From positions 13,755-77,754 of the IMG/VR virus record IMGVR_UViG_3300031553_000001: DNA of 64,000 nucleotides. One strand, given 5' to 3'. The number at the start of each line of letters is the position of its first letter. Positions within the stretch are counted from its first letter, which is position 1. The notes beneath the pieces were generated by a model. It saw only the letters and a list, made by a program, of their open reading frames with translations. It did not search any database and was not told the origin of the DNA. The translations under genes and the position numbers were made by a program. Source of the stretch: a virus. Of the stretch, positions 1 to 13,048 are shown piece after piece.

Positions 1-371
1 TTATCATAGTCACTAGCTGGTATACCTGCTGCATCAGTTAATATGTAATGAGCTTCTATACCAACATCCGTTGCATATATACCTGCACCAGGCTTATAAA
101 TTATTGAACCATAAGCCATATCTATTACGGATTTTGGAAGTTGCTCACCAGCCTTGGCGTGATAATATGTAAGTTCGCCACTATGATATTTCTTGGCCTT
201 CTTGCCCACCAAACGTGCTGTGATAGGCTTCTTCTCAACTGGCTTCTTGGTAACAGGTTTTCCCTTACCAGCCTTACCACTACCAATAACTCTATGTTTC
301 TCTCCAGTGTGAGTACCTTCTGGAGGACTATACCATCCACTACTAGAAGAACCTTTAAGTGTGAGCTTCAT
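1..371 (-). CDS. Partial ORF running off the left edge, starting with the shared tag MKLTLKGSSSSGWYSPPEGTHTGEKHR; cargo domain unknown
   Basis: Not in the ORF track. ATG at 371-369 overlaps the TGA of 368..1234 (ATGA); frame is open to position 1; N-terminus nearly identical to 12218..13048. Confidence 0.85.
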   Translation of the reverse strand, partial: MKLTLKGSSSSGWYSPPEGTHTGEKHRVIGSGKAGKGKPVTKKPVEKKPITARLVGKKAKKYHSGELTYYHAKAGEQLPKSVIDMAYGSIIYKPGAGIYATDVGIEAHYILTDAAGIPASDYD

Positions 372-1234
372 CCCACGCACTCCTTCACAGCCTTGAGTAC
401 CATCTTTCTGAAGCCGTATTTGTTGCATATCATATCCCTGGCCCGCATACCCATATCATACCACCGCTGGTAATCATCTGCCAACATTTGACGCAACTTA
501 CTAGCCATCCCATCATATGGATTGGATATGCATACCTCATCACCCCAAGGCCACATATCGTACACCTCTTCTGTCAGCATTGGTATTCCATACGCTGCAA
601 ACAGTGCCCAACGCAATGGCTCTTGGAATGGATATTGATCTTGATGTATGTTGAGTGCAAATTTGGAATGCTTTAACACCTCATCACGGTTTGGCGCTTT
701 ATCCCAGGGCCAACAATTTGGCCCAATGTATCTGCGGTCGAATTGATTATATAACCTAGCCCTACGATCAGACACATATGACATATGGACAAAGTCATAG
801 TGCCGGTAGCTTATTTCCGATGGATGCCCAAGATCTGGATGCGAGCCAAGCACCACAAATCGCAACATGGATTCAGTTGCCAGTCGCTTATCACTCACCC
901 ACACATCGTCTAGCGTGCGCTCATAGATTTTATCTCGATTGACCTTGGCAAAGTTTCCTACACCATCCAGGCCAGATGTACGCTCCATAACCCAATAGCC
1001 GGATGGGCGTTCCAAACACCAATGCACTAGATATGCACTGTGTGGTTTATCAATTTGGTTGTTGATGTGTGGCTCCCATTCACCATTTATAGGTGTAACG
1101 ATGTACACCAGTGGCTTACGAACATCCACTTCATCCACATAGCACGTCTCAAACTGGGATAGCTCTACCAGCTTCCAAAAATCGACATATGAATCATAGT
1201 TGTATCTAGTCTTAACGAAAACTATATCCATCAT
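368..1234 (-). CDS. Glycosyltransferase, GT-B fold (CgeB/Glyco_trans_1_2-like C-terminal domain)
   Basis: C-terminal SKFALNIH...EPLRWALFAAYGIPMLTE...GMRARDMI pattern typical of GT-B nucleotide-sugar binding domains. Confidence 0.65.
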   Translation of the reverse strand: MMDIVFVKTRYNYDSYVDFWKLVELSQFETCYVDEVDVRKPLVYIVTPINGEWEPHINNQIDKPHSAYLVHWCLERPSGYWVMERTSGLDGVGNFAKVNRDKIYERTLDDVWVSDKRLATESMLRFVVLGSHPDLGHPSEISYRHYDFVHMSYVSDRRARLYNQFDRRYIGPNCWPWDKAPNRDEVLKHSKFALNIHQDQYPFQEPLRWALFAAYGIPMLTEEVYDMWPWGDEVCISNPYDGMASKLRQMLADDYQRWYDMGMRARDMICNKYGFRKMVLKAVKECVG

Positions 1235-1362
1235 TAATCCCTATATCTGACAGATATGCCAGCCTTCCCAGATCCAACAGCTCTGTGTTTCTCTCCAGTA
1301 TGAGTACCTCTACTTGGAGCATATCATCCACTACTAGAAGAACCTTTAAGTATAATTTTCAT
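1234..1362 (-). pseudogene. Remnant of a tagged DUF3626-like gene: MKIILKGSSSSG*YAPSRGTHTGEKHRAVGSGKAGISVRYRD
   Basis: Tag copy with TGA at the conserved Trp (1326-1324), joined directly to AGISVRY, which matches the C-termini of 11140..11976 (AGISTRY) and 12218..13048 (AGISVTR). Confidence 0.8.
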
Positions 1363-1412
1363 TCACACAACCCACCTTGTAACCCATCCTGGGTATACTG
1401 GAATCCAAACCG

Positions 1413-2180
1413 TCATATCCGGCCATCCTCGAAGTATGGATGGTCACCAATCAGATGCTCTACATCAAACCGGTTGAATGGCTCTGGACGCCAAAATGGT
1501 TTACCCGTCTTATCATCACAGCCGTTAGTAGGATGTACACCACATTTGTGCTTCTTGCCAAACTTCCAGTCACGATATATTGGATACCAATTGCGTCTGA
1601 ATTCTGCACGATGGCCATGGATCTTGGATTTGTATAGAACCAAAATTGTGCTCTGTGCATAACCAAAGTGATAGAACCCCATTCCTGGTATATACCCATC
1701 ACCCTTACCACTGGGCTTTATGATTCGCACTGGCATACATGCATCCCTACACACCCAATTCACCCCACACCAGAAATGAAGGGCATGCGTTCTGTAATCC
1801 CTAGCATCGTTCTCCCAAGCAAAATCTAGTGCCTCTGATAGCACATCCAAATCCCAAACCTCATCAGAATCGTTCCACACGATTAAGTCAGCACCTTGTT
1901 GTGTCAAATAATTTACACAATAATCCCTATGAGTACCTTCTTGCCAAAATTGATCCACGTCGTGCCACACAACTATATCAAAGCCATCTGCTATGGCTTT
2001 CAACTCATCTCTGGACTCCCCATCAGGCAGTTTCGTATTGGTTATACTGCCATGGCTAGGATGTGGTGTGTAGAATATGTGATATTCATCCACCAATGGC
2101 TCCACTGAGCGAATAGCCCATTTAAGCCACTCTCTACCATAGTGCAAACCACAATAAGCCACTATTTTCATACTACACAC
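1413..2180 (-). CDS. Glycosyltransferase, GT-A fold (GT2-like); likely start ATG at 2171
   Basis: N-terminal KIVAYCGLHYGREWLKWAIRSV, DxD-type motif WNDSDEVW, later YHFGYA. Confidence 0.65.
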   Translation of the reverse strand: MCSMKIVAYCGLHYGREWLKWAIRSVEPLVDEYHIFYTPHPSHGSITNTKLPDGESRDELKAIADGFDIVVWHDVDQFWQEGTHRDYCVNYLTQQGADLIVWNDSDEVWDLDVLSEALDFAWENDARDYRTHALHFWCGVNWVCRDACMPVRIIKPSGKGDGYIPGMGFYHFGYAQSTILVLYKSKIHGHRAEFRRNWYPIYRDWKFGKKHKCGVHPTNGCDDKTGKPFWRPEPFNRFDVEHLIGDHPYFEDGRI

Positions 2181-2192
2181 TCTCCAAGGTAA

Positions 2193-2218
2193 GGGGATGG
2201 GCTTTTACACCCATCCCC
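2193..2218 (-). terminator. GC-rich hairpin just downstream of the capsid gene; probable leaky terminator or mRNA-stabilising stem
   Basis: GGGGATGGG/CCCATCCCC 9-bp inverted repeat; only a weak U-tract. Confidence 0.5.
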
Positions 2219-2233
2219 AAACTTAACAACTTG

Positions 2234-3742
2234 CTATGGCGTTGGAAGCCACAGTGATCCAGTAGCAGGCGTATCCGTGCACGCCATACCCCAACTTCCA
2301 GGCATATAGCTGGGCGCTCCACCAGGCATATAGTCTGGCTGATGCGTATCCGCTACGATTGGCTGCAGCTTACGCGAGCAGCATACATCCGCGATTCGTG
2401 CGCATGCCCAAGGCGCACTCAAGTAGATTTCAGGAGATGTGCCTACAAGTGCCTTTCCGCACCACACATCCTCCAGGCCTTTGAACGCAAACCGGCCAGC
2501 GTTCTCCACCCTGATTCCAGTTGCGGCATTAAATTTCTTCATCAGGTTGGCAAAGTCAGACAAATCCAGGTACTCACCATACATGGTATCGCGATTGCCG
2601 ATGCGTCTGGTCAACAGATAGATGTCGGCGCAGTAGTTTGCATTCGGCTTGGTAATGGTCAGGGAATCATCGATGATGATTGGAATGCTACGACCAGACT
2701 TGAGCGAGATGGTACCAACTACCTTGCGACCATCCCACATAGGGCCACCGTTCAAGGATTTTCTGTAGTTCAAGATCTGCGAGCGCAAGGCTTGGTCAGT
2801 GACGTCATTGGCTGTAGTGACTCCACACACGCTATAGCAGGCAAATGCATCCAGTAGACAGGTCGCCAGGAACCGTGTGGTAAACAGAACCATATCTGTA
2901 TTTGAGATAGTGCCAATGGTTTGGGCACGATACTCAATGTCACCAGTTAGTTCTGCCAAGAAGTCAAAGAAATTTCCCCATCCATTGATCGCCCCATCCA
3001 GATCGTCATTGTTCCATGGAATCATGTAGGAATCTGCATATGGACACGGTTGACCATTGTTATCCGTATAACCTGTCCTGATTATGGATTCCAATCCATT
3101 CATCTCATACGCGTTCTGGTGGCTGCCATGCACTGCGTCGTGTGCAATGTCCTGGGATAGGACATTCATTATGCCATTCAGCTGCCATTCAAACTCGTCA
3201 GTGATGGGAGTGCCATTCACGCGCATTATTCGATCTGTTTCACATCGCTGTTGTGTGTTGTGTGGGCCAAGTGGGTCAGACTGACGATGATACCACGATG
3301 TGTGGCATATATCAAATTGACACTCGCCCCACTCCCATCCTAGTGGGAGCTCACATGGTGATCCAGCGCCTGTAGTGCAATCTTCAGCACCTTCTCCACG
3401 CCACCACGGTATGATCTGCACAACCCTTTTCCAAATCTGGTTGCGTCGCCATCCAAGCCAGTTGAGGATACCCCCAGTCTCAATTTGCAAACCAAAGATG
3501 TCCCCAGCAAAGCATGGATCAAAGATGCTGTTACGACCATAAATGGTCGGATTGGCCAGATTGGCATACGTGGTGGTCCAGTTTCCCTTCATCTGCGGCG
3601 TCATCTGTGACATGATGGGAACGCCACCATTATCACGTCTCATAGCAGTAGCAGTCTGCATAGTTGCTACTGCTTGAGCAAACCTGGGATCATTGAACAT
3701 GGTCAACAGGTCTTCTGCCGACAGGTTATCAAACTTGTTCAT
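2234..3742 (-). CDS. Major capsid protein (putative)
   Basis: 502 aa; last gene of the portal-MuF-protease-scaffold series; strong RBS; followed by a hairpin; helical leader ending QMK-G. Confidence 0.7.
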   Translation of the reverse strand: MNKFDNLSAEDLLTMFNDPRFAQAVATMQTATAMRRDNGGVPIMSQMTPQMKGNWTTTYANLANPTIYGRNSIFDPCFAGDIFGLQIETGGILNWLGWRRNQIWKRVVQIIPWWRGEGAEDCTTGAGSPCELPLGWEWGECQFDICHTSWYHRQSDPLGPHNTQQRCETDRIMRVNGTPITDEFEWQLNGIMNVLSQDIAHDAVHGSHQNAYEMNGLESIIRTGYTDNNGQPCPYADSYMIPWNNDDLDGAINGWGNFFDFLAELTGDIEYRAQTIGTISNTDMVLFTTRFLATCLLDAFACYSVCGVTTANDVTDQALRSQILNYRKSLNGGPMWDGRKVVGTISLKSGRSIPIIIDDSLTITKPNANYCADIYLLTRRIGNRDTMYGEYLDLSDFANLMKKFNAATGIRVENAGRFAFKGLEDVWCGKALVGTSPEIYLSAPWACARIADVCCSRKLQPIVADTHQPDYMPGGAPSYMPGSWGMACTDTPATGSLWLPTP

Positions 3743-3770
3743 TATAAAATCTCCTTGTTAGCATCTAATT

Positions 3771-4475
3771 CTACTCATCGCCGACTGGATTTCCCACAGC
3801 CATGTCCGTCAGGGATGCATATGCACGCCCATCAGAATCATAGATGGCAAATCCTTCCGGTGTGGTTGGCGCTACCACTTGGTTAACACCTGGCTCCGCC
3901 TTGAATGCTGTAGGCATCGTTGTTGCCTGTGCCTGTGACTGGGCAGCACTCCTAAATTGTGCCGCATTCGCAGCCGTTTCCAATTCAGAAGTTCCATCCA
4001 TCACAGCACGTAGACGGATACGCTGCGCCGGTGACATATCGCCTATCACTTGCTTGATTCTAGTGGTATCATCAACGGCCACCTGGTTGAATGTTGCTGC
4101 AAACTCTTTGAACATAGTACTCATTGAGTCCACAGTTTCTTTCAGTTCAGCAACATCAGCCACGATTTTAGCCAACTCTGGCACCTCTATCTCTACATCT
4201 TTTAGCATGCCCTGGACTTTGCCAGCCACCGCTTCAGACAGTAACTCTATAGATTGTGCCATCTCAGGTACAGTAACTTTCGAATCCGCTTCAGGCACAT
4301 CCAAGGCCTGACGCATAGACGTCATAAATTCCTCGGAGGACATATCCTTCATCCTCACCAGGTCTTTATCCTCTACACCAGCCAAGAATGCATCTACGAC
4401 CTCTTCAGGAAGCTCAGCGTCGATCAAACGACTACGCCACTTGCTCCTGATTTCCTTCATACTAATTTCACTCAT
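3771..4475 (-). CDS. Capsid scaffolding protein (putative)
   Basis: Acidic, Ala/Glu-rich coiled-coil protein between protease and capsid genes. Confidence 0.6.
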   Translation of the reverse strand: MSEISMKEIRSKWRSRLIDAELPEEVVDAFLAGVEDKDLVRMKDMSSEEFMTSMRQALDVPEADSKVTVPEMAQSIELLSEAVAGKVQGMLKDVEIEVPELAKIVADVAELKETVDSMSTMFKEFAATFNQVAVDDTTRIKQVIGDMSPAQRIRLRAVMDGTSELETAANAAQFRSAAQSQAQATTMPTAFKAEPGVNQVVAPTTPEGFAIYDSDGRAYASLTDMAVGNPVGDE

Positions 4476-4499
4476 GGTTTATAGCTCCTCACTTGATGT

Positions 4500-5489
4500 T
4501 CATTCATTGACAGTGTAGGCTGTAATTGCAGTCTGTCTCACCGCAGGTTTGTCCGTGACGCTAATATCAAACGTCATTGATTTGAGCACCTGCAATCCAG
4601 CCAACATATTAGGTTTGGCGTAATACGTCTTGCACGTTGGACACACCGCACCCAACATATAGTTTACCAGTCGAACAGTCAAACCGCTTCCACATTCTGG
4701 ACAATGGCCTGCTGCCTCAACTGTATAAAAACCTCTTGATACTTTCCACCTACCAGTATTCCTGGCAACGTTGTCTTTCATAGATTGGGCAAATGCTGTA
4801 TCATTCCAGATTCCTTTGTCTACCGCCCAATTGCCAATCCTAGCCATACTGGTACACTTGCCCAGTTTGAAACCACGTATATGGAATAGCCTCAGTTCTG
4901 GATATTCTTTGGTACGCTCTGCACGAGCAATATCCCAATCCATCGCCTTGGTAGTGAACAGCTCTTGCTGCAAATCCCACGCAGCCGCTGTGGACACTGC
5001 CAGCCAGCCATCCTTTCCATCAGCAGTCTTGTATGTAGATAAGGCACTACCGTCAGCAGTAATCTGCTTCAACAATGCTTGCAAAGCAAACTCTGCGGAT
5101 GGGATGTTGCGTAGTGCATCCGTGAGCTCTTTGGTGACTTCCTCTACTGACTCTGGTTCACTACTGGATGACTTTGGTTGCATAGCTGCACCGCACTTGG
5201 GACACTTAATCTCCATACAAGGCGTTCCGCGTTCGTGCGTTGCAGTTGCCCCACACTCTGGACACACGCACATATCCACACCGCCATCACCTTGCTTTGG
5301 ACCACCAACACCTTGGCCCTCCCCCCTATCCTTCTGCTGCACATCCTCCACGTGTACATACAATGCGCGCAGATGAGCCAATGCATCAGCATGAGTAGGA
5401 TGGCATTTCACGATTTCTTTTGGATCATCTTTAGTTCCCTTGACCACACAAGTCTCATCTTCCCGTTTACGTAAGAAATACGGCATCAC
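4500..5489 (-). CDS. Prohead maturation protease with accessory Cys-rich Zn-ribbon segments
   Basis: D-x-Q-x-E-x-F-T...LRLFH...W-x-VSRGF...DISVTDKPA resembles HK97-type proteases; position in head module; CVCPECG/CPKCG and CPECG/CPTC motifs. Confidence 0.6.
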   Translation of the reverse strand: MMPYFLRKREDETCVVKGTKDDPKEIVKCHPTHADALAHLRALYVHVEDVQQKDRGEGQGVGGPKQGDGGVDMCVCPECGATATHERGTPCMEIKCPKCGAAMQPKSSSSEPESVEEVTKELTDALRNIPSAEFALQALLKQITADGSALSTYKTADGKDGWLAVSTAAAWDLQQELFTTKAMDWDIARAERTKEYPELRLFHIRGFKLGKCTSMARIGNWAVDKGIWNDTAFAQSMKDNVARNTGRWKVSRGFYTVEAAGHCPECGSGLTVRLVNYMLGAVCPTCKTYYAKPNMLAGLQVLKSMTFDISVTDKPAVRQTAITAYTVNE

Positions 5490-6145
5490 ACACCTCCCAA
5501 CCCTATGAATGGCGGAACCTCTACACCTATAGGCACTTCAACAACTTCCACATGTCCATCTCTGGACAGACAAACTTCACAACTCTCCTTGGCCGGATTA
5601 ACCACCCAAGTTGCCTGAACTGTCTTGATGCCCTGGTCTGGATCTTCTCCAAGCACCTCCATGTCCCATATACATCCACACCTATGCCAACACGGTGCAG
5701 ACTCATCACCTGGGATGTATGGCAATATGATGTTGGGAGTGCGTCTAACGTTGGGTGCAAAGTACCCCGCTTGTGCCTCATTAGCTAGAGTATTTCCAGC
5801 ATCACCATACAAATGTGCCCTAGCCTGTATAGCCTTCAATGAAATGGTATCACGATTATCATAAATGGCCTGAGAAAAGCCATGCACCCATCTGTACTGC
5901 TTCTTCAGTTGAGCACCCACCTTGCCCCAATCAGAGGAAGTCATAGCATCCCAATCACCCTTGCCAATGGCAGCCGAACCAGTCAAATACAAGCGCAATC
6001 TGGTACGCATATCCTCTTCCCACATCCCAAGTGTAATACGTCCATCGTACAGATTCTTAGCCAATGCATCCATCGATCCATTGAAGGCAGTTTTGCGTGC
6101 CAATAAGGCTGCTGCCTTAGCTGCATCCGCAATAGGGCCAGCCAC
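5486..6145 (-). CDS. MuF-like head morphogenesis / minor capsid protein
   Basis: Directly after portal; PGD-x3-C-x2-RCGC-x-W and W-x7-C-x2-C motifs. Confidence 0.55.
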   Translation of the reverse strand: MAGPIADAAKAAALLARKTAFNGSMDALAKNLYDGRITLGMWEEDMRTRLRLYLTGSAAIGKGDWDAMTSSDWGKVGAQLKKQYRWVHGFSQAIYDNRDTISLKAIQARAHLYGDAGNTLANEAQAGYFAPNVRRTPNIILPYIPGDESAPCWHRCGCIWDMEVLGEDPDQGIKTVQATWVVNPAKESCEVCLSRDGHVEVVEVPIGVEVPPFIGLGGV

Positions 6146-8215
6146 TTAGACACTCTCCACATACGGAGCCAATTCTGGAATAGTTCTCCAAACAGCCATC
6201 TCAGCATTGATGGCCTTGCGCGTCACCCGTGCTCCACGATCCACTTCATCATCGGGGATAGGATGGCCTGATATATTGGGTTCTAGCTCATCCTCTTTCA
6301 TAACCACATCCAATGCAGGATCAACCACGCCAGCAACCCATTTCTCCAACGCTGCGTGTCCGTACCCTGAAACGCTTGTATCTTCTGTAGATATGTCACC
6401 ACGCCTTATGAATTTGGAAACATCTCGTAACACTATAATTCTATGTGCACTGGCAAACATAGTACCAGGAATATCATGAATCTGTACATCATCTGGATGC
6501 ACAAATCCTGTAACGACGCCACCACCAGCTTCTGCGTACACTTTGGCATTGCCTGGAGTATCATAGAAATACACGCCAGGACCAAATTGTCCCTCGGTGC
6601 TTGGCCTAATGACTTTCAAACCACCAGGCCCTGTACCTCTAAATACGGGAACATATCCCAAACCTTCCAACTGGCTACGTGACATACTACCCAATGCGCC
6701 AACTTTCTCTCCAACTCCAATATGCGTACCTTTGGGTGGCCCATACCAACCACTAGAGGATGAACCTTTCATAGTGATAAGCTTGGCTCCACTCAACCGG
6801 CCAGCACGCCATATAAAGCGTATCACATCTTCTAGATATTCCTTGTGGATCTCGCCGGATGTGATGGCTATGCGTTCATCTCCAACCACCCACTCTGGAA
6901 GCACTTGCTTATCGGCCAGCAGCCGTTTGAACGTCTTTATGTCTATGGCAGCTTCACCTGCTTTTGGGAAAGCCAATGGCAAATATGCCTCAATCCACGC
7001 CTTGGCGATATTTGCCGCCACCATATCCTCTTCAATATCTTGGGTGTCGAATTCAAACACGACATCCTCTGGCAACTCAGCATTCAGGCTACGCTCCACC
7101 ATAGTGATGAATTCTCCACCACCCTTACCTCTGGCCTTGAGATGCTGCACCTCTGCTTCTGATGCTGTTCCCAGTGCGCCGGTGGAGATAGCCCAAAACT
7201 CACGCGTGTCCACACCAAAGTCCAGCGCTAAGGTGTTAACATATTGTGCCACAACCGTTTGACGGTCAAATGACTCTGGAATGGCTGAGAACGACTGAAT
7301 AGATATTTCCACCTTGGCTCCAGGGTTGTTTCCCACTAGCCATAACACCTGTGGAAACGTCAAACTGTTGTTCTTCTTACGCTCTGCCTGCCACATCGCA
7401 ATGGCTTGACGAAATTCTTTGTCAGACATTCCAGTCACGGACGCTATACCCTCCGGTGGCAAGTTGGACAATTTCTCAGCATCGTAGTCGTGCAGGGCCA
7501 TCAATAATTTGGCTGCCCGTGCCGCCCTGGACGTGGCACAGTAGCCCATCCCATGAGCAACTTCATTGGGGAGGGGCATTGATGCGAAATGGATGAACAT
7601 TCCAGGCTTATACCAGATCTCCTGATTGGTAGCTGCTGAGTAGTAGTACATCGGACGCTTGGGATTGCCTGTCATCTTGCAACATCTAGTATCAATGGTA
7701 GCCAAATCCGACATCTTGCCCCATTGTCCACCACGCCGCGTCACGTCCCACCATACACCATTGTCTTGCGTATAGAAATCTATGGCGCTGGTACCAATGA
7801 ATCCACCCCACTCATTCCCAGACAAATATCTGGTTCTGGACAACATCTGGGATACCTGGTTGGCGTTGTTGCGGCCACCTTCCACCTTCCAAGTCATGGC
7901 CTGCATCTTGGCCACCATAGAATACACAGCACCAGCCAGGATCGGTTCTTCCTTCCATATAGCGTCCAACCACCGGCTATAGGCCACAGTGCCACGTTTG
8001 GGAATACCATCACTTTTGCCTAATGCCTGGATGCTCATAAACATGCCAAGCACGCCTGCATCCTCAGATTTGGTGTGCACATCCAGACGGGTGTCAGCTT
8101 CACGAGCAGCTTTGAATTGCGCTTCTGGTTCTGGAACAGTCCTCAGTTGGCGAAATGCTTGCCAGGATTCGCCCAGGTCTGTAAAGAACTCGGCAGCGTT
8201 ATTCAGCAAGGACAT
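6146..8215 (-). CDS. Portal protein with a C-terminal insertion (shared tag plus ADP-ribosyltransferase-like domain)
   Basis: Follows terL; portal-like N-terminal ~470 aa; then ITMKGSSSSGWYGPPKGTH and VFRGT...GQFGPGVYFYDTPGNAKVYA. Confidence 0.75.
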   Translation of the reverse strand: MSLLNNAAEFFTDLGESWQAFRQLRTVPEPEAQFKAAREADTRLDVHTKSEDAGVLGMFMSIQALGKSDGIPKRGTVAYSRWLDAIWKEEPILAGAVYSMVAKMQAMTWKVEGGRNNANQVSQMLSRTRYLSGNEWGGFIGTSAIDFYTQDNGVWWDVTRRGGQWGKMSDLATIDTRCCKMTGNPKRPMYYYSAATNQEIWYKPGMFIHFASMPLPNEVAHGMGYCATSRAARAAKLLMALHDYDAEKLSNLPPEGIASVTGMSDKEFRQAIAMWQAERKKNNSLTFPQVLWLVGNNPGAKVEISIQSFSAIPESFDRQTVVAQYVNTLALDFGVDTREFWAISTGALGTASEAEVQHLKARGKGGGEFITMVERSLNAELPEDVVFEFDTQDIEEDMVAANIAKAWIEAYLPLAFPKAGEAAIDIKTFKRLLADKQVLPEWVVGDERIAITSGEIHKEYLEDVIRFIWRAGRLSGAKLITMKGSSSSGWYGPPKGTHIGVGEKVGALGSMSRSQLEGLGYVPVFRGTGPGGLKVIRPSTEGQFGPGVYFYDTPGNAKVYAEAGGGVVTGFVHPDDVQIHDIPGTMFASAHRIIVLRDVSKFIRRGDISTEDTSVSGYGHAALEKWVAGVVDPALDVVMKEDELEPNISGHPIPDDEVDRGARVTRKAINAEMAVWRTIPELAPYVESV

Positions 8216-8522
8216 TTTGGGATACCTCGTCCATCAATCTGGTCAACAAATCCATACTCTGCTGTATAGTTTCTGTATCAATATTCCTGATTGTGTCCAT
8301 ATCTATAGCATCTGGTGATACATAATATGGCGATTCTACATCCGGCTTATAGCCATCACAACTGAACACGTGGCACCCAGAAAGTGTCATGATAGTATTG
8401 TCGTGCATGACCTGAATTAATGGACAGTTACCAACATTCAAGCAGGAAGCGCACCGCTCATCCTTCCAAACGATGTGCTCTTTCAGTCCATTGTTATGTT
8501 CTGGATTTATAAGGTCTGGCAT
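8199..8522 (-). CDS. Small Cys-rich hypothetical protein
   Basis: Start revised to MPDLIN (ATG 8522); CASC-x4-C...C-x4-C; overlaps the portal start. Confidence 0.55.
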   Translation of the reverse strand: MPDLINPEHNNGLKEHIVWKDERCASCLNVGNCPLIQVMHDNTIMTLSGCHVFSCDGYKPDVESPYYVSPDAIDMDTIRNIDTETIQQSMDLLTRLMDEVSQNVLAE

Positions 8523-8523
8523 A

Positions 8524-8730
8524 TCACTCTCTCTTGGTAAATGCTGTCTTACTTCCAAACCAAAAACCTAGTATTAGCATGGCCGCTGCCCATAACTCCT
8601 GCGGCACTGGACGTTCCATCAAATACATCACACAAATGGTTGTCACCATTCCCAATGTAACCAAACTCTGCACAATTATACTCTCTCGAAACAGCTCCCA
8701 AAATGGTTTCCAAGTACTTTTAGTGAACAT
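8524..8730 (-). CDS. Holin-like small membrane protein
   Basis: 68 aa, two hydrophobic helices, LGFWFGSK and a basic tail. Confidence 0.5.
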   Translation of the reverse strand: MFTKSTWKPFWELFRESIIVQSLVTLGMVTTICVMYLMERPVPQELWAAAMLILGFWFGSKTAFTKRE

Positions 8731-8745
8731 GTAACTCCTCCGCTG

Positions 8746-10329
8746 CTAAAATACTACTCCACTTCCACCCGATGTCTCTTCCCAAAATGCCAATACACAA
8801 GCATCTCCATAGTCAGTAGATCGCCCATGTCGTGTCTTCTTACGCAAGATGTCCTTAGACTCCACACAGATAGTCAAATATCCATGAATGTATCTAGTCT
8901 CATATCTGGGAGCAGCCAAATCCCCTAGCAGGTAGTCATTTGGACACAACGCTACATCAGCACCACTATCAGGATCTAACATCTCTCGCATATTCCACCA
9001 TGCAGCATCTCTCACACATCTAAATCTAAACGTTCCAGTCTTATCTGTACGGGTTGTCCCACCACCCATATAGATCTGAGCCAAGTTCATAGACGGGTTG
9101 GCCCAATCTATCTCCTGGGCCAATATATCGTATATGGAAGCACCTAAACCTGAATCCATCTCAATGTTAGTCAAATGAGCATGCATGGCAAAGGGCTTCA
9201 ATTTTCCTGCCGACACCGGAACAGACTGTTTGGCATATACATACAAATTCTCTAACCTATCCCCTACCCTATCTGCAAATACAGTCTTATCCTCACCCAT
9301 ACGCGCGGAGTCAACTCCAATCACACGCTTGCTCAACCCTGCACCTGGACTGCCAGCTTTCTCCCACTGCCTATACCGTTCAAATGCAGCTTCAACCCAC
9401 TCCAATGGAATGACACCTTCACTGGAATCTTGAGCAAATTCTCCAAGAACGCGATTCTTGTATACTGCTGAATGAACTCCCCACTGGCTCTGGCGTTCCT
9501 CTGCCCATTGAGGAGATATGCGATTAGCAGCTATGGCCTCATCCAAAGTCACATGTCTAACTATCCAATCATCATAACCTGCTTTCTTGGAATGAATGTC
9601 ATAGAATCTGCCTTGGGGTGGGCCTGGTGTAGATATGGCCAACCAAAAGCATTCACCACTACCGCCGCCTATGGTCGATGTGCCTTCTGTGGCAAATGCG
9701 CCCTCAGCAGCATCCCACATGGATGGCCCAACACTCTTGCTTTCATCAAATATATAGAACAACCTACTGGCGTGCGCTCCCTCAATGGATGCGGCATCTC
9801 CAGACGAAACAGCAAATGACTCATTCCAACCCATCCCAGACCTGATGCGAAGCGAATGGACCATCATCTCATCGTGGGTGTATGGATCACGGCCAATGGT
9901 GTTCCAATCCAACAACTTGGCAACTTTGTGAATTTCCGGCCACAGAAACTTTTCCAACTGCCGCCACACACTAGCTAATGTGGGTGCTGTAGCATCATCC
10001 TCAGTGGTAAGGATAACATGATGGACACAAATTGCTGCTATCAATGTTTTGCCCAGACCATGTGGGCCACGCATAGCTACTCTACGGTGCCCCATATCAA
10101 ACCAAGCCAAGGCTTCCTCTTGGTAAGGTGCAAATGTTGGTGCTATCTTTGGCATACAATCATACACAAACGCCACTCTGTCATCACGGTAGGTGCGTTG
10201 GAATTTGGCAAATTTTGTACTATGCCCAACATTTATATAGACACCTCTGGCAAGGTCAAGCAACCCTTTTTGCTTGCCACCCGTGCCAAGACCTCTTTGG
10301 TGCAATGCTACATCTGGAAATACTGTCAA
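8746..10329 (-). CDS. terL: Terminase large subunit
   Basis: Walker A RGPHGLGKT, Walker B YIFDE, coupling motif ISTP, nuclease IGVDSARMGEDKT and RSTDYGDA. Confidence 0.93.
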   Translation of the reverse strand: MTVFPDVALHQRGLGTGGKQKGLLDLARGVYINVGHSTKFAKFQRTYRDDRVAFVYDCMPKIAPTFAPYQEEALAWFDMGHRRVAMRGPHGLGKTLIAAICVHHVILTTEDDATAPTLASVWRQLEKFLWPEIHKVAKLLDWNTIGRDPYTHDEMMVHSLRIRSGMGWNESFAVSSGDAASIEGAHASRLFYIFDESKSVGPSMWDAAEGAFATEGTSTIGGGSGECFWLAISTPGPPQGRFYDIHSKKAGYDDWIVRHVTLDEAIAANRISPQWAEERQSQWGVHSAVYKNRVLGEFAQDSSEGVIPLEWVEAAFERYRQWEKAGSPGAGLSKRVIGVDSARMGEDKTVFADRVGDRLENLYVYAKQSVPVSAGKLKPFAMHAHLTNIEMDSGLGASIYDILAQEIDWANPSMNLAQIYMGGGTTRTDKTGTFRFRCVRDAAWWNMREMLDPDSGADVALCPNDYLLGDLAAPRYETRYIHGYLTICVESKDILRKKTRHGRSTDYGDACVLAFWEETSGGSGVVF

Positions 10330-10330
10330 C

Positions 10331-10669
10331 TCAGCTACCTATCCTGTGCCCATGCACGTTCAGCTCACCCACGATCACGCCACCAGCAGCTGCCAGAGTG
10401 ATGGTTATGGCCGATGAGGCATCACTCTCTTCCTCATACAGTGGAAGGAAGCCTGGCCCACCACTCGTTATGTCCCAAGCATAGTCAAATCCACCACCGC
10501 CCATAGTCATCCGGCCACCTGTGGGCGCAGCTGAATATGACCAACTAAGACCTGAGAAGACGTGTCGTCCAGCCCTGAATGTGATAGACACTGCTGTATT
10601 GGGTACAGATCGCGCGTGTAATGATGGCCAAACTGTAGTTGGCTTTATGGAAACTTCACCATATGGCAT
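10331..10669 (-). CDS. Hypothetical beta-rich protein, possibly virion-associated
   Basis: Start revised to MPYGEV (ATG 10669, GGAG RBS); abuts terL. Confidence 0.55.
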   Translation of the reverse strand: MPYGEVSIKPTTVWPSLHARSVPNTAVSITFRAGRHVFSGLSWSYSAAPTGGRMTMGGGGFDYAWDITSGGPGFLPLYEEESDASSAITITLAAAGGVIVGELNVHGHRIGS

Positions 10670-10744
10670 CCTTATTCTCCTAAATTCCCTAGAAATATAA
10701 GAAAAACAACCAATATAACGGCATATTCGCACAAAAACTTTGAA

Positions 10745-11143
10745 TTATTCGCGTCTACCCATCTTCTTGCGCAACATATTAGCTCCACTTAGTGGACTAG
10801 CCTGAGCCATCTGCCGGATGTTGGGCATCCCAGTAGATGATTGTATCGGCGCAATATTGAATGCTGGTGGTTCTACTGTCTGAGTAAACGCTGTCTGGCC
10901 TAGATGCTCCAACAAGGAATTTAGCTCTGCTATGGATGCATCCAATGGAGCCAGCTCAGCCTTTACCCGCTGCTCCAACTCCACTATTCGTGCCTTGCGA
11001 ATTTCCAACAACTCAGTCAATCGGTTGCGAATAACGGCAACAGGATCAGGCCTGGCAGGCGGTGGAGATTCTACCGCCACAGGTTCTATGTGGGACACAG
11101 GCATCCCAGATGGATCACCAGAACCATGGTCAGCTTTTTTCAT
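10745..11143 (-). CDS. Hypothetical coiled-coil protein
   Basis: ATGA overlap with the upstream gene; heptad-rich centre. Confidence 0.6.
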   Translation of the reverse strand: MKKADHGSGDPSGMPVSHIEPVAVESPPPARPDPVAVIRNRLTELLEIRKARIVELEQRVKAELAPLDASIAELNSLLEHLGQTAFTQTVEPPAFNIAPIQSSTGMPNIRQMAQASPLSGANMLRKKMGRRE

Positions 11144-11976
11144 TTGACATATCTCGTGCTAATTCCAGCAGCCTCCAGAGCTGATCTGGCAACGGAATAT
11201 TCCGGTTGTGTCCCATGCATTACTACGTGATCTATGTCAGACAATTTGATTCCACCATGGATCTGAGCTTCTACGTAATTCACAACTTGGAAGGCATCAT
11301 CATGTACATACATGGAACTCAAATCCCAAGATAGCTTACCAGGATTATTGACAGGAGTAGCCCCAACTTCACCATCAGCAAAGCCACCAAAAGAATCTCC
11401 CACCGTGAAGGTAGTGCGGTTTCGTATAGAAGACTTCAATACAAACTCTACAGCTCCATATTGCGTAACCCCACGATCTGTATACCCAGGATTGCCCATA
11501 TATCCATATATGGGATAGTTTGCTGGATCCTCCCCTGGTTTAACGTTGAATGCCTTGGACTCAACCTTCTGTCTGAGCTTTGGATTGTATGCACCCTTAG
11601 ATTTGCCAGTCTCATATTGATTCTTGAATCTGCCAGATTCTAGTATAGATTCCACTGCCATAACTGGAGCACGTATAGATACAGCAGACTCACTCAAGAA
11701 CTTTTCCATATTCTTTTGGCATGTAGCTTCATATTCCTTTATACCAATATCTCTCAAATAAGCACGTGACTTAGTGCTATTATCGACAGCATCCACTAAT
11801 TTCTGAGATGGAGCACGTATTGCACGTTCTGCCAAGGATTTACTTACAGCTGGCTTCTTGCCGCGTGCTTTACCACTCTTCCCAGATCCAATAGCTCTAT
11901 GTTTTTCACCTGTGTGAGTACCTCTACCTGGAGCATACCAACCAGAACTAGAAGAACCCTTGAGCGTAATCCTCAC
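11140..11976 (-). CDS. Tagged DUF3626-like protein (probable ADP-ribosyltransferase fold), paralog 1
   Basis: Tag followed by GRFKNQYETG...PIYG...QYGAVEFVLK...RTTFTVGDS...YVEAQIHGG, the DUF3626 signature as I recognise it. Confidence 0.7.
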   Translation of the reverse strand: MRITLKGSSSSGWYAPGRGTHTGEKHRAIGSGKSGKARGKKPAVSKSLAERAIRAPSQKLVDAVDNSTKSRAYLRDIGIKEYEATCQKNMEKFLSESAVSIRAPVMAVESILESGRFKNQYETGKSKGAYNPKLRQKVESKAFNVKPGEDPANYPIYGYMGNPGYTDRGVTQYGAVEFVLKSSIRNRTTFTVGDSFGGFADGEVGATPVNNPGKLSWDLSSMYVHDDAFQVVNYVEAQIHGGIKLSDIDHVVMHGTQPEYSVARSALEAAGISTRYVK

Positions 11977-12212
11977 GTGGAAGCCGCCTTCAGTTTGAGC
12001 TTGGCTTTGGGAACGGGCTTCTCGGTAGTAACTTCAGACTCTGGTGGATCCTCCCAATAGCCCCACTTTAGCGCCTGCTGAATACGCATCGGCTTGGATT
12101 TGGTATTGGTGATAGTGTTGTGCAGGACGCACATGGCATCAAAGTCCTTGACGTCTACATCATCATCCACTATCATATCAATTTCACCACGTTGGGACAG
12201 AATTTTGGACAT
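11973..12212 (-). CDS. Small protein with a KWGYW motif between the two DUF3626-like genes
   Basis: 79 aa, RBS GAGGT, translationally coupled to the downstream paralog. Confidence 0.6.
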   Translation of the reverse strand: MSKILSQRGEIDMIVDDDVDVKDFDAMCVLHNTITNTKSKPMRIQQALKWGYWEDPPESEVTTEKPVPKAKLKLKAAST

Positions 12213-12217
12213 ATTTC

Positions 12218-13048
12218 CTACCTCTCATCACGCGTCACAGATATACCAGCTGCTTCCAAAGCAGCCGTCGCACGATAATAATATGATATAGCAGCACTTC
12301 TAGTATGCATTACCACGTGATCTACATCAGCCAAACTAATTCCACCGTGAATTTGTGCTTCCACGTAGCCTACTCTATTGAACTGATTTTCATACACATA
12401 CCTGGCATTTCTGTCCCAAGACATCTTGCCTGGTTTGTTGACAGGAGTAGCTCCAACATTGTCATAGGCAAAATTACTCAGTGAATCCCCTACCGTAAAA
12501 GTGGTACGATCTCTGACAGATGACTTCAATACAAATTCTACATCTCCATACATTCGCGCTGTCTTTGGATTACTGGGATGACTCATATATCCATAGATGG
12601 GATAACTTCCTGGTTCCTCTCTTACCTCTATGTTGAAGGCTTTGGATTCCGCTTCTTGCCTATATGTTGGGTCATAAGTACCTCTGGATGTAGTAGTTTC
12701 GTGTTGATTCTTTAATCTACCGGATTTTAGGATAAATTCTACTACTTCGGTAGGCGTTCGTACAGATACCTCTGATTCACTGAGAAATTTCTCCATATTT
12801 CTCTGACATTTAGCTTCATACTTCTTTGTACCCATCCCCGATGTCTTGCCACCCATGACGATCTGCCTATCAACAGTCATCCATAACTCTCCAGATGGAG
12901 TATGTACCATACGTTCTGCCAAGGATTTCTCGGTAGGCTTCTTACCAGCCTTACCAGATCCAACAGCCCTATGTTTCTCACCAGTGTGAGTACCTCTACC
13001 TGGAGCATACCATCCGCTACTAGAAGAACCTTTGAGTGTGAGCTTCAT
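12218..13048 (-). CDS. Tagged DUF3626-like protein, paralog 2
   Basis: Colinear with 11140..11976 across its length; same motifs (KNQHET, PIYG, YGDVEFVLK, TVGDS, YVEAQIHGG). Confidence 0.7.
   Translation of the reverse strand: MKLTLKGSSSSGWYAPGRGTHTGEKHRAVGSGKAGKKPTEKSLAERMVHTPSGELWMTVDRQIVMGGKTSGMGTKKYEAKCQRNMEKFLSESEVSVRTPTEVVEFILKSGRLKNQHETTTSRGTYDPTYRQEAESKAFNIEVREEPGSYPIYGYMSHPSNPKTARMYGDVEFVLKSSVRDRTTFTVGDSLSNFAYDNVGATPVNKPGKMSWDRNARYVYENQFNRVGYVEAQIHGGISLADVDHVVMHTRSAAISYYYRATAALEAAGISVTRDER

Follow-up and report, generated by a model that had tools for sequence, protein, structure and literature searches.

The late region and its repeated tag

The DNA analysed here (the window) is a stretch of 64,000 nucleotides, bases 13755-77754 of the 77,754-bp contig IMGVR_UViG_3300031553_000001 from an uncultured virus, a phage of about 78 kb. 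Its late region contains head genes and, among them, a repeated peptide tag that is the subject of this study. The copies were located by a six-frame peptide search for h-x-h-K-GSSSSGWYxPxxGTH (h, hydrophobic residue) across the contig. Six were found, all on the minus strand and all in the late region, with none elsewhere; four head free genes, one is a remnant, and one lies inside the portal protein (Table 1). An earlier sequence-only reading of this DNA had placed the tag at five head-module loci. All five positions were right, and the sixth copy lies to the left of the window, in genome sequence referred to below as locus L001.

The full tag forms a leader of about 35 residues with the consensus M-K-h-T-h-K-GSSSSGWYxPxxGTHTGEKHRxxGSGK. 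It consists of a short amphipathic strand with a terminal Lys (MKLTLK) and a Gly/Ser-rich, His-containing peptide (GSSSSGWYxPxxGTHxGxxHRxxGSGK), followed by a Lys/Pro-rich linker and then by a folded effector domain. In the free genes, the tags begin at the initiator codons, at 371, 11976 (GTG), and 13048 in the window and at 11145 of the genome outside it. The tags of this phage are unusually rich in Ser, with GSSSSG where relatives have GGPGSG.

Table 1. Coordinates of the tagged genes and head genes. Positions for L001 and P0005 are in genome coordinates, all others in window coordinates unless stated; AF2, AlphaFold2; pLDDT, predicted local distance difference test; ART, ADP-ribosyltransferase.
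Feature	Position	Strand	Remarks
P0005, tagged ART	genome 10435-11145 (L001), 2.6 kb left of the window	-	PF03496 (ADPrib_exo_Tox), VIP2/C3-like
P0003-family cargo gene, 190 aa	window 1-371; genome 13553-14125	-	crosses the left window edge; tag 255-371
Tag remnant	1234-1362	-	MKIILKGSSSSG, then TGA (1324-1326), then YAPSRGTHTGEKHRAVGSGKAG; cargo lost
Major capsid protein	2234-3742	-	candidate propeptide boundary M51-K52/G53 (~3584-3592)
Scaffold protein	3771-4475	-	MK/E (residues 6-8), MK/D (42-44)
Prohead protease, S78 (HK97 gp4)-like	4500-5489	-	N-terminal small domain, zinc ribbons
MuF-like head protein, 219 aa	5486-6145	-	phrog_24776; no tag here
Portal protein	6146-8215	-	139 homologues; AF2 core pLDDT 80-90
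Portal tag-like junction and insert	6296-6787	-	AKLITMK/GSSSSGWYGPPKGTH; 157 aa (residues 484-640) ending VVMK/E
DUF3626 (SopF-family) cargo gene	11140-11976	-	tag 11860-11976; GTG start
Acidic 79-aa protein	11973-12212	-	stop overlaps the GTG start of the 11140-11976 gene (GTGA)
DUF3626 (SopF-family) cargo gene	12218-13048	-	tag 12932-13048

Conservation of the tag DNA, also proposed earlier, was confirmed, as the quoted 26-nucleotide word gave three matches at one mismatch or fewer and none in 100 shuffles; a chance origin of the repeat is excluded. Similarity between the copies sets in exactly at the ATG or GTG start codon and fades about 105 nucleotides further on. In pairwise comparisons of the copies, the synonymous difference (pS) was 0.31-0.77, the nonsynonymous difference (pN) was 0.01-0.19, and pN/pS was 0.04-0.46, while the Ser codons alternate between TCN and AGY. 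Because pS is high, pN is low, and the Ser codon families have been switched, selection must act on the peptide. The copies are old and not recent duplicates.

In the remnant, an in-frame TGA stands in place of the Trp codon TGG, and pN relative to the copy at 13048 is 0.04. Recoding of TGA as Trp was considered for the remnant and dropped, because every other copy uses TGG. The glycosyltransferase gene at 368-1234 begins at the end of the remnant. This gene belongs to an island of about 12 kb that separates the capsid gene from the tail genes (window 368-2180; L001, genome 4958-13553). The island contains glycosyltransferase-, methyltransferase-, and epimerase-like genes, and the tagged cargo genes are interleaved with it. 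The products of the island may glycosylate virion proteins.

Tagged cargo genes

The cargo of this phage consists mostly of ADP-ribosyltransferases. The assignment of two tagged genes to DUF3626 held up in Pfam (PF12294; E 1.7e-12 for 11140-11976 and 1.3e-10 for 12218-13048), with bit scores of 47.4 and 41.2 against a gathering cut-off of 27, and no sequence match to either protein was found in the PDB. SopF is an ADP-ribosyltransferase. It contains DUF3626 (PMC6682159). P0005 matched PF03496 at 86 bits and VIP2 (1qs2) at E 2.6e-11, and carries YRG, STS, and ESE, which correspond to the R, S-T-S, and E-x-E motifs of the R-S-E ARTs.

In an AF2 model of P0003 made with four homologues, residues 1-72, comprising the upstream reading, the tag, and the Lys/Pro linker, had pLDDT below 50, and residues 77-209 (about 130 residues), the cargo itself, had pLDDT above 90. 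The tag and linker are thus predicted to be disordered, as a leader or a cut site would be. Foldseek returned no PDB match for the cargo fold, and the best VIA hit, at Z 6.9, was to a Stay-Green protein. The homologues P0092, P0100, P0089, and P0022 bear the same tag. The C-terminus of the P0003 cargo domain reads h-x-h-K-L-G, resembling the strand of the tag itself.

The acidic 79-aa protein upstream of one DUF3626 gene has a counterpart in the relative P0075, where its domain (...QQALKWGYW) reads in frame straight into the tag. It is translationally coupled to the DUF3626 gene through the GTGA overlap, and could be cargo itself or else pair with the ART or inhibit it. In this phage, each free cargo gene codes for a single domain, and a multi-effector polypeptide occurs only as the portal with its insert.

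Portal and other head proteins

In the portal family, G472/L474 and the C-terminal stretch of about 45 residues are conserved throughout, and a hypervariable slot lies between them. The slot measures 46-71 residues in the closest homologues and up to 100 in more distant ones. In P0188 it reaches 235 residues and contains a 2H phosphoesterase, and in P0217 it has KGGLGSGN, which resembles the canonical motif described below. In this phage, the slot holds the tag-like junction (K483/G484, at 6764-6769) and the insert. The copy lies where the sequence-only reading had put it, but comprises the first half of the tag only, with IGVGEKVGALGS replacing TGEKHRxxGSGK. Judging from these comparisons, the slot seems to be a recurrent docking place for effector domains, 2H in P0188 and ART-like here.

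The insert resembles models of ART-PolyVal, DUF3990, and PARP in the ESM Atlas (feature score 0.91-0.92, template modelling (TM) score 0.52-0.60), and PF18760 is present in 20% of one ESM Atlas cluster that resembles it. These matches are at the level of a lead and the insert had no Pfam match, so the further ART-like domain claimed for this place stands as a lead. In the AF2 model of the portal, the C-terminal helices (655-678) were confident, and the insert had pLDDT below 50 and gave no usable model. In portal proteins generally, the region preceding the C-terminal helices faces the capsid interior. The portal protein would here serve as the chassis for an effector domain, ART-like by the lead-level match.

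The gene of the putative protease lies between the portal and MuF-like genes and the scaffold and capsid genes. All ten of its ten best named ESM Atlas clusters were Peptidase_S78 (score 0.87, lead level), with structural rows at TM 0.36-0.62 over residues ~125-320. The protein has an N-terminal domain of about 50 residues (MPYF...AHLRALY) and two to three zinc ribbons before and within the S78 core, and some of its look-alikes in the ESM Atlas carry a ChaB domain. In relatives, the protease orthologues are fused to the scaffold, and the scaffold start of this phage, MSEISMKE, aligns with the protease-scaffold junction M-x-K-K/E of the relatives. One of these fusions, the 756-aa P0156, has a partial tag, AKGSSSSGWYNPPQGTH, after the shared N-terminal domain. 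The MuF-like domain, which stands alone in this phage, forms in L006, L007, and L012 the C-terminus of ORFs (open reading frames) of 676-701 aa with one or two tags and a 2H domain. These in-frame fusions to portal, MuF-like, and protease-scaffold proteins support a physical link of the tag to the prohead.

The capsid orthologues can be aligned only from residue ~60. Upstream of that, nine of nine keep [FYLM]-K-[E/A/G] at 13-17 residues before the conserved IYGR, and the residues around it vary more, with ASIT following K-E in three. The Lys-ending MK words that the sequence-only reading had noticed in capsid, scaffold, and portal exist as described. Across the 77 ORFs of this phage, MK[EDG], a pattern picked post hoc after the data had been seen, occurs ten times, and six of the ten fall in the capsid, scaffold (two), protease, and portal (two). 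These four proteins make up 7.6% of the residues, for which about 0.5 occurrences would be expected. A triad h-K-(G/E/D/A) is common to the tags, the capsid propeptide boundary in the nine orthologues, and the protease-scaffold junction. The shared triad fits cleavage by the S78-like prohead protease. A cut after Lys would be the simplest register, because the Lys is invariant and the next residue is variable.

The tag in other phages

The tag of this phage (the WY tag) also occurs elsewhere. A word-seeded protein search with tag residues 1-40 found it on PI3/4-kinase-like proteins and on another DUF3626 protein from other assemblies. About 25 further tagged clusters at 50% identity came from a second word search and from a profile search over 1.84 billion proteins; the profile had 311 positions including the kinase domain, which diluted the result, and only rows matching profile positions 1 to ~45 were counted. 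Such a search had been proposed as a way to list cargo diversity, and it returned kinase, ART, HExxH, GNAT-like, and other cargo. The cargo of the WY tag in other metagenomic phages is of at least eight types: DUF3626, PF03496 and DRAT-like ARTs, PI3/4-kinase-like proteins, HExxH peptidases, GNAT-like proteins, the P0003 family, others, and several without an assigned type. The proposed modularity of the tag on unrelated cargo was therefore borne out, and the tag is not confined to one protein family. At least nine of the tagged proteins are HExxH peptidases (P0022, P0035, P0064, P0079, P0082, P0083, P0102, P0154, and P0155). P0008 has three tags and P0022 has two, one ahead of each module. 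In about 30 independent free genes, the short hydrophobic strand is kept and the tag Lys after it is 5-11 residues from the start.

About 20 more in-frame WY cores were present in metagenome contigs of JGI. An ORF of 1,743 aa headed ...LFRK-GGSGSGWYGPPRGTH was found in two contigs, one from a metagenome and one, 231 kb long, from a Steroidobacter metagenome-assembled genome (L144 / L168, 2052-7280). Either a prophage or a cellular protein of the polyvalent type may be involved, and the ORF may provide a clue to the host of the WY lineage.

A second leader was found on related proteins. It has the form h-h-x-K-GGxGSG(N/H)xGHxGRPGxxGGS and is referred to here as the canonical motif. One kinase family has both leaders, the WY tag in P0009-12 and the canonical motif in P0032, P0062, P0074, and P0076, and the two align residue for residue except for an insertion of 4-5 residues. 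Because both head the same kinase family, the alignment indicates that the WY tag is homologous to the canonical motif and a lineage sub-variant of it. Related IMG/VR loci were fetched via the portal-family alignment (18 loci). In eight of these, from seven portal-family contigs, each locus has 1-10 modules that begin with a canonical tag, all co-oriented on the portal strand, and in L012 every ORF between portal and protease is tagged in this way. The cargo in portal-family loci includes ADPrib_exo_Tox, ART-PolyVal, Zeta toxin, and 2H phosphoesterase, and the effector models detected on tagged proteins were PF03496, PF18760, PF06414, PF13563/PF02834, PF00454, and HExxH modules. True multi-module tagged proteins occur in relatives (P0008, P0022, P0028, and ORFs in L006, L009, and L012).

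When a degenerate DNA pattern for GxxGHxGRPGxxGG was run on IMG/VR, at least 115 loci matched, and the matches listed contain about 200 in-frame motifs and up to nine per locus. In Pfam and NCBIfam searches of the tagged proteins, zero models covered the tag region and all matched stretches were in cargo domains. A search of the literature on the motif and on packaged-effector leaders found no paper naming the motif. Searches of 50,697 phage records by tblastn with the WY and canonical tags gave nothing usable, the queries being short and of low complexity. When IMG/VR was searched for loci with the tag, 111 patterns matched, but not one of them reached E 1e-3 in tblastn. The canonical motif is thus widespread and apparently undescribed. 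A metal-binding site was considered for the motif and dropped, since many canonical copies have Asn at the position of the first His.

Interpretation and alternatives

The explanation we favour is that the tag is a cleavable N-terminal delimiter of proteins carried inside the capsid, to which we give a probability of about 0.55. According to this model, cargo would enter the prohead during assembly, either brought in by the leader or through direct fusion with a prohead protein, for example the portal. Cleavage of the tag at the hydrophobic-Lys/Gly junction would fall to the S78-type prohead protease, which would trim the capsid propeptide, the scaffold, and both ends of the portal insert at sites of the same type. 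Once freed, the enzymes would exit together with the DNA and act immediately on the host. The tagged genes might have originated from a polyvalent protein that was resolved into separate genes with the delimiter kept on each, and the conserved tag DNA may double as a breakpoint for the gain and loss of cassettes, the remnant at 1234-1362 being a possible example. We infer packaging, cleavage with its exact bond, and ejection, and likewise the role of the tag as the address, as opposed to that of a hinge or cut site alone. The sequence-only interpretation is partly supported: comparison bears out the modularity, the fusion to head proteins, and the shared h-K-x triad, but the tag is not special to this phage and the junction residue is Lys in some lineages only.

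Several observations weigh against this explanation. Because the most conserved part of the tag follows the proposed cut, cleavage would leave it attached to the cargo, and a cleaved-off address does not explain this. The tag is a sub-variant of a widespread module-delimiting motif, and among the matches listed the canonical motifs are mostly internal to ORFs of 600-1900 aa, apparently polyvalent proteins; being widespread and mostly internal, the motif may be a hinge or a cut site rather than an address. Large motif-bearing proteins may be anchored through MuF, and then the motif need not be an address. The protease of this phage is below the Pfam threshold, and the enrichment of MK[EDG] is that of a short triad chosen with the data in view. 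The alternative register, with the cut after the Glu of h-K-E, could also apply and would be like the h-x-E of T4.

The junction residue is a further difficulty. Among the matches listed, K directly precedes the Gly-rich core in 37% of the motifs across phages, whereas D takes this position in 21%, L in 14%, and R in 10%. Either the specificities of the proteases differ, or there is no protease site at this position. The residue was identical in 88% of pairs within a phage vs 21% between phages (among the matches listed; IMG/VR loci L020-L134). This pattern fits a lineage-specific protease specificity and fits common descent equally well, and the uniformity within a genome could reflect mere common descent of its copies. 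A search for the protease family of four non-K lineages led to no assignment. PF00574, PF14550, and PF03420 gave zero matches; the PF03420 search was also silent in control genomes, and the protease of this phage itself escapes Pfam. PF04586 matched the K-class contig of L095 only. A generalisation in which both forms of the motif are a 'zip code plus cut site' of tailed phages at large, loading whatever domain follows into the prohead and being cut by the maturation protease at a junction residue (K, D, L, R) set by the lineage, is offered as a tentative and somewhat doubtful extension.

The main rival is that the motif is a flexible inter-module hinge inherited from polyvalent ancestors, serving to keep modules unfolded for threading or to bind DNA and being neither an address nor a protease site. 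Free genes would then have kept it from the splitting of a larger gene, and packaging would depend on MuF or portal fusion or on cargo-specific contacts. The internal position of most canonical motifs, the fusion of tagged modules to the MuF-like domain in relatives, and the variable junction residue all agree with a hinge, as does the predicted disorder of the Lys-rich tag and linker, and the basic, GRP-containing stretch would suit the DNA-binding version. The WY variant, however, is without the GRP core. A hinge also leaves unexplained why the start codon is 4-10 residues upstream of the Lys in the roughly 30 independent free genes with the hydrophobic strand kept, and why the same h-K-x triad is found at the capsid propeptide boundary. 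Decay would be expected of an element that is no more than a relic, but the tag has the low pN/pS given above. Weakened by start-codon placement, the kept strand, and purifying selection in the free genes, the hinge is regarded as unlikely.

Two other possibilities are considered less probable still. The motif might be the site of a zincin metallopeptidase (MPTase) borne by the cargo, or might be self-cleaving, either within the capsid or once injected. Modules of the HExxH peptidase type rank with the most frequent tagged cargo, and processing of polyvalent proteins by the MPTase has been proposed (Iyer et al., 2017; PMC5512222). However, none of the tagged genes of this phage codes for an HExxH peptidase (the whole genome was not screened for one), yet it has five intact tags, and the junction triad matches capsid and scaffold sites, which are substrates of the prohead protease; a role of the MPTase is therefore judged improbable. 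Lower again, and very improbable, is the idea that the repeat matters only as a handle for DNA recombination or that the tag acts after injection, in host-factor binding or localisation. The remnant tag ends precisely where the inserted glycosyltransferase gene starts, and the similarity ends sharply at the tag ends, as a handle would predict. In contrast, pS of up to 0.77 and the switches of Ser codon family with the peptide kept are not those of a DNA element, conservation of the peptide extends to phages with tag DNA too diverged to recombine, and the fusions to portal and protease point to a role in the prohead.

If the tag is indeed a delimiter of packaged cargo, several consequences follow. 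Only in a few model phages are the injected proteins known, and predicting them from sequence is hard; with the tag, the first-strike effectors could be listed directly from metagenomes; for this phage the list would consist of four ART-like enzymes and a new fold. The motif would explain how polyvalent proteins get cut into working units, and would also provide a compact tag for loading foreign proteins into HK97-type capsids. Under the wider 'zip code plus cut site' generalisation, it would be a portable handle for capsid loading, and for thousands of uncultured phages the injected proteome could be read from the motif alone. What is new here is that the tag is a lineage variant of a commoner canonical motif that starts effector modules in many phages.

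Comparison with known systems

In HK97, gp4 is the protease and the delta domain of gp5 is removed after Lys103; the encapsidation signal is the C-terminal tail of the protease itself, which binds the delta domain. The present phage resembles HK97 in its putative S78-type protease, in the proposed cut after Lys, and in the concept that a short peptide suffices for encapsidation, and differs in having a separate scaffold and a predicted capsid propeptide of 52 residues. MuF-fused polymorphic toxins of temperate phages were reportedly described by Jamet and colleagues in 2017. As in those, toxin-like domains are here tied to a portal-associated minor head protein, apparently for delivery with the DNA. 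However, the MuF-like protein stands alone in this phage and is C-terminal, not N-terminal, in the fusions of its relatives, and most tagged cargo is without a MuF domain.

Polyvalent proteins have been predicted to be packaged (Iyer, Burroughs, Anand, de Souza, and Aravind, 2017; PMC5512222), and one has been found in virions by mass spectrometry (10.64898/2026.04.10.717836). The text of the former paper (PMC5512222) has no occurrence of 'glycine', 'linker', or 'GHxG'. The tagged proteins have the same effectors (ART-PolyVal, exotoxin-type ARTs, kinases, Zeta, 2H, zincin peptidases, and GNAT) and the same phage context of portal and terminase with linkage to MuF, and the relatives of this phage have multi-module proteins with a tag before each module. 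The difference is that the modules are here separate genes, each with its own delimiter, and that one is in the portal.

The closest parallel is with the capsid targeting sequences (CTS) of T4 (Mullaney and Black, 1996, as cited in PMC12991175), which are carried by IPI-III and Alt and cut by gp21. In both systems, a short common N-terminal leader is found on unrelated proteins, including an ADP-ribosyltransferase; the cargo genes lie among head genes; the cargo is meant for co-injection, as predicted here; and the end motif of the leader is shared with other substrates of the maturation protease, at a candidate site in this phage. In contrast to T4, there is no sequence similarity between the leaders, the protease here is S78/HK97-like instead of S77, and the junction is h-K followed by G and without Glu, where T4 is cut after L/I-x-E. 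Furthermore, the longest conserved part here is downstream of the putative cut, and the element, known from sequence alone, is also repeated inside multi-domain proteins and in the portal. Taken together, the best-supported model is that the tag works like the capsid-targeting leader of T4, by analogy and not by homology.

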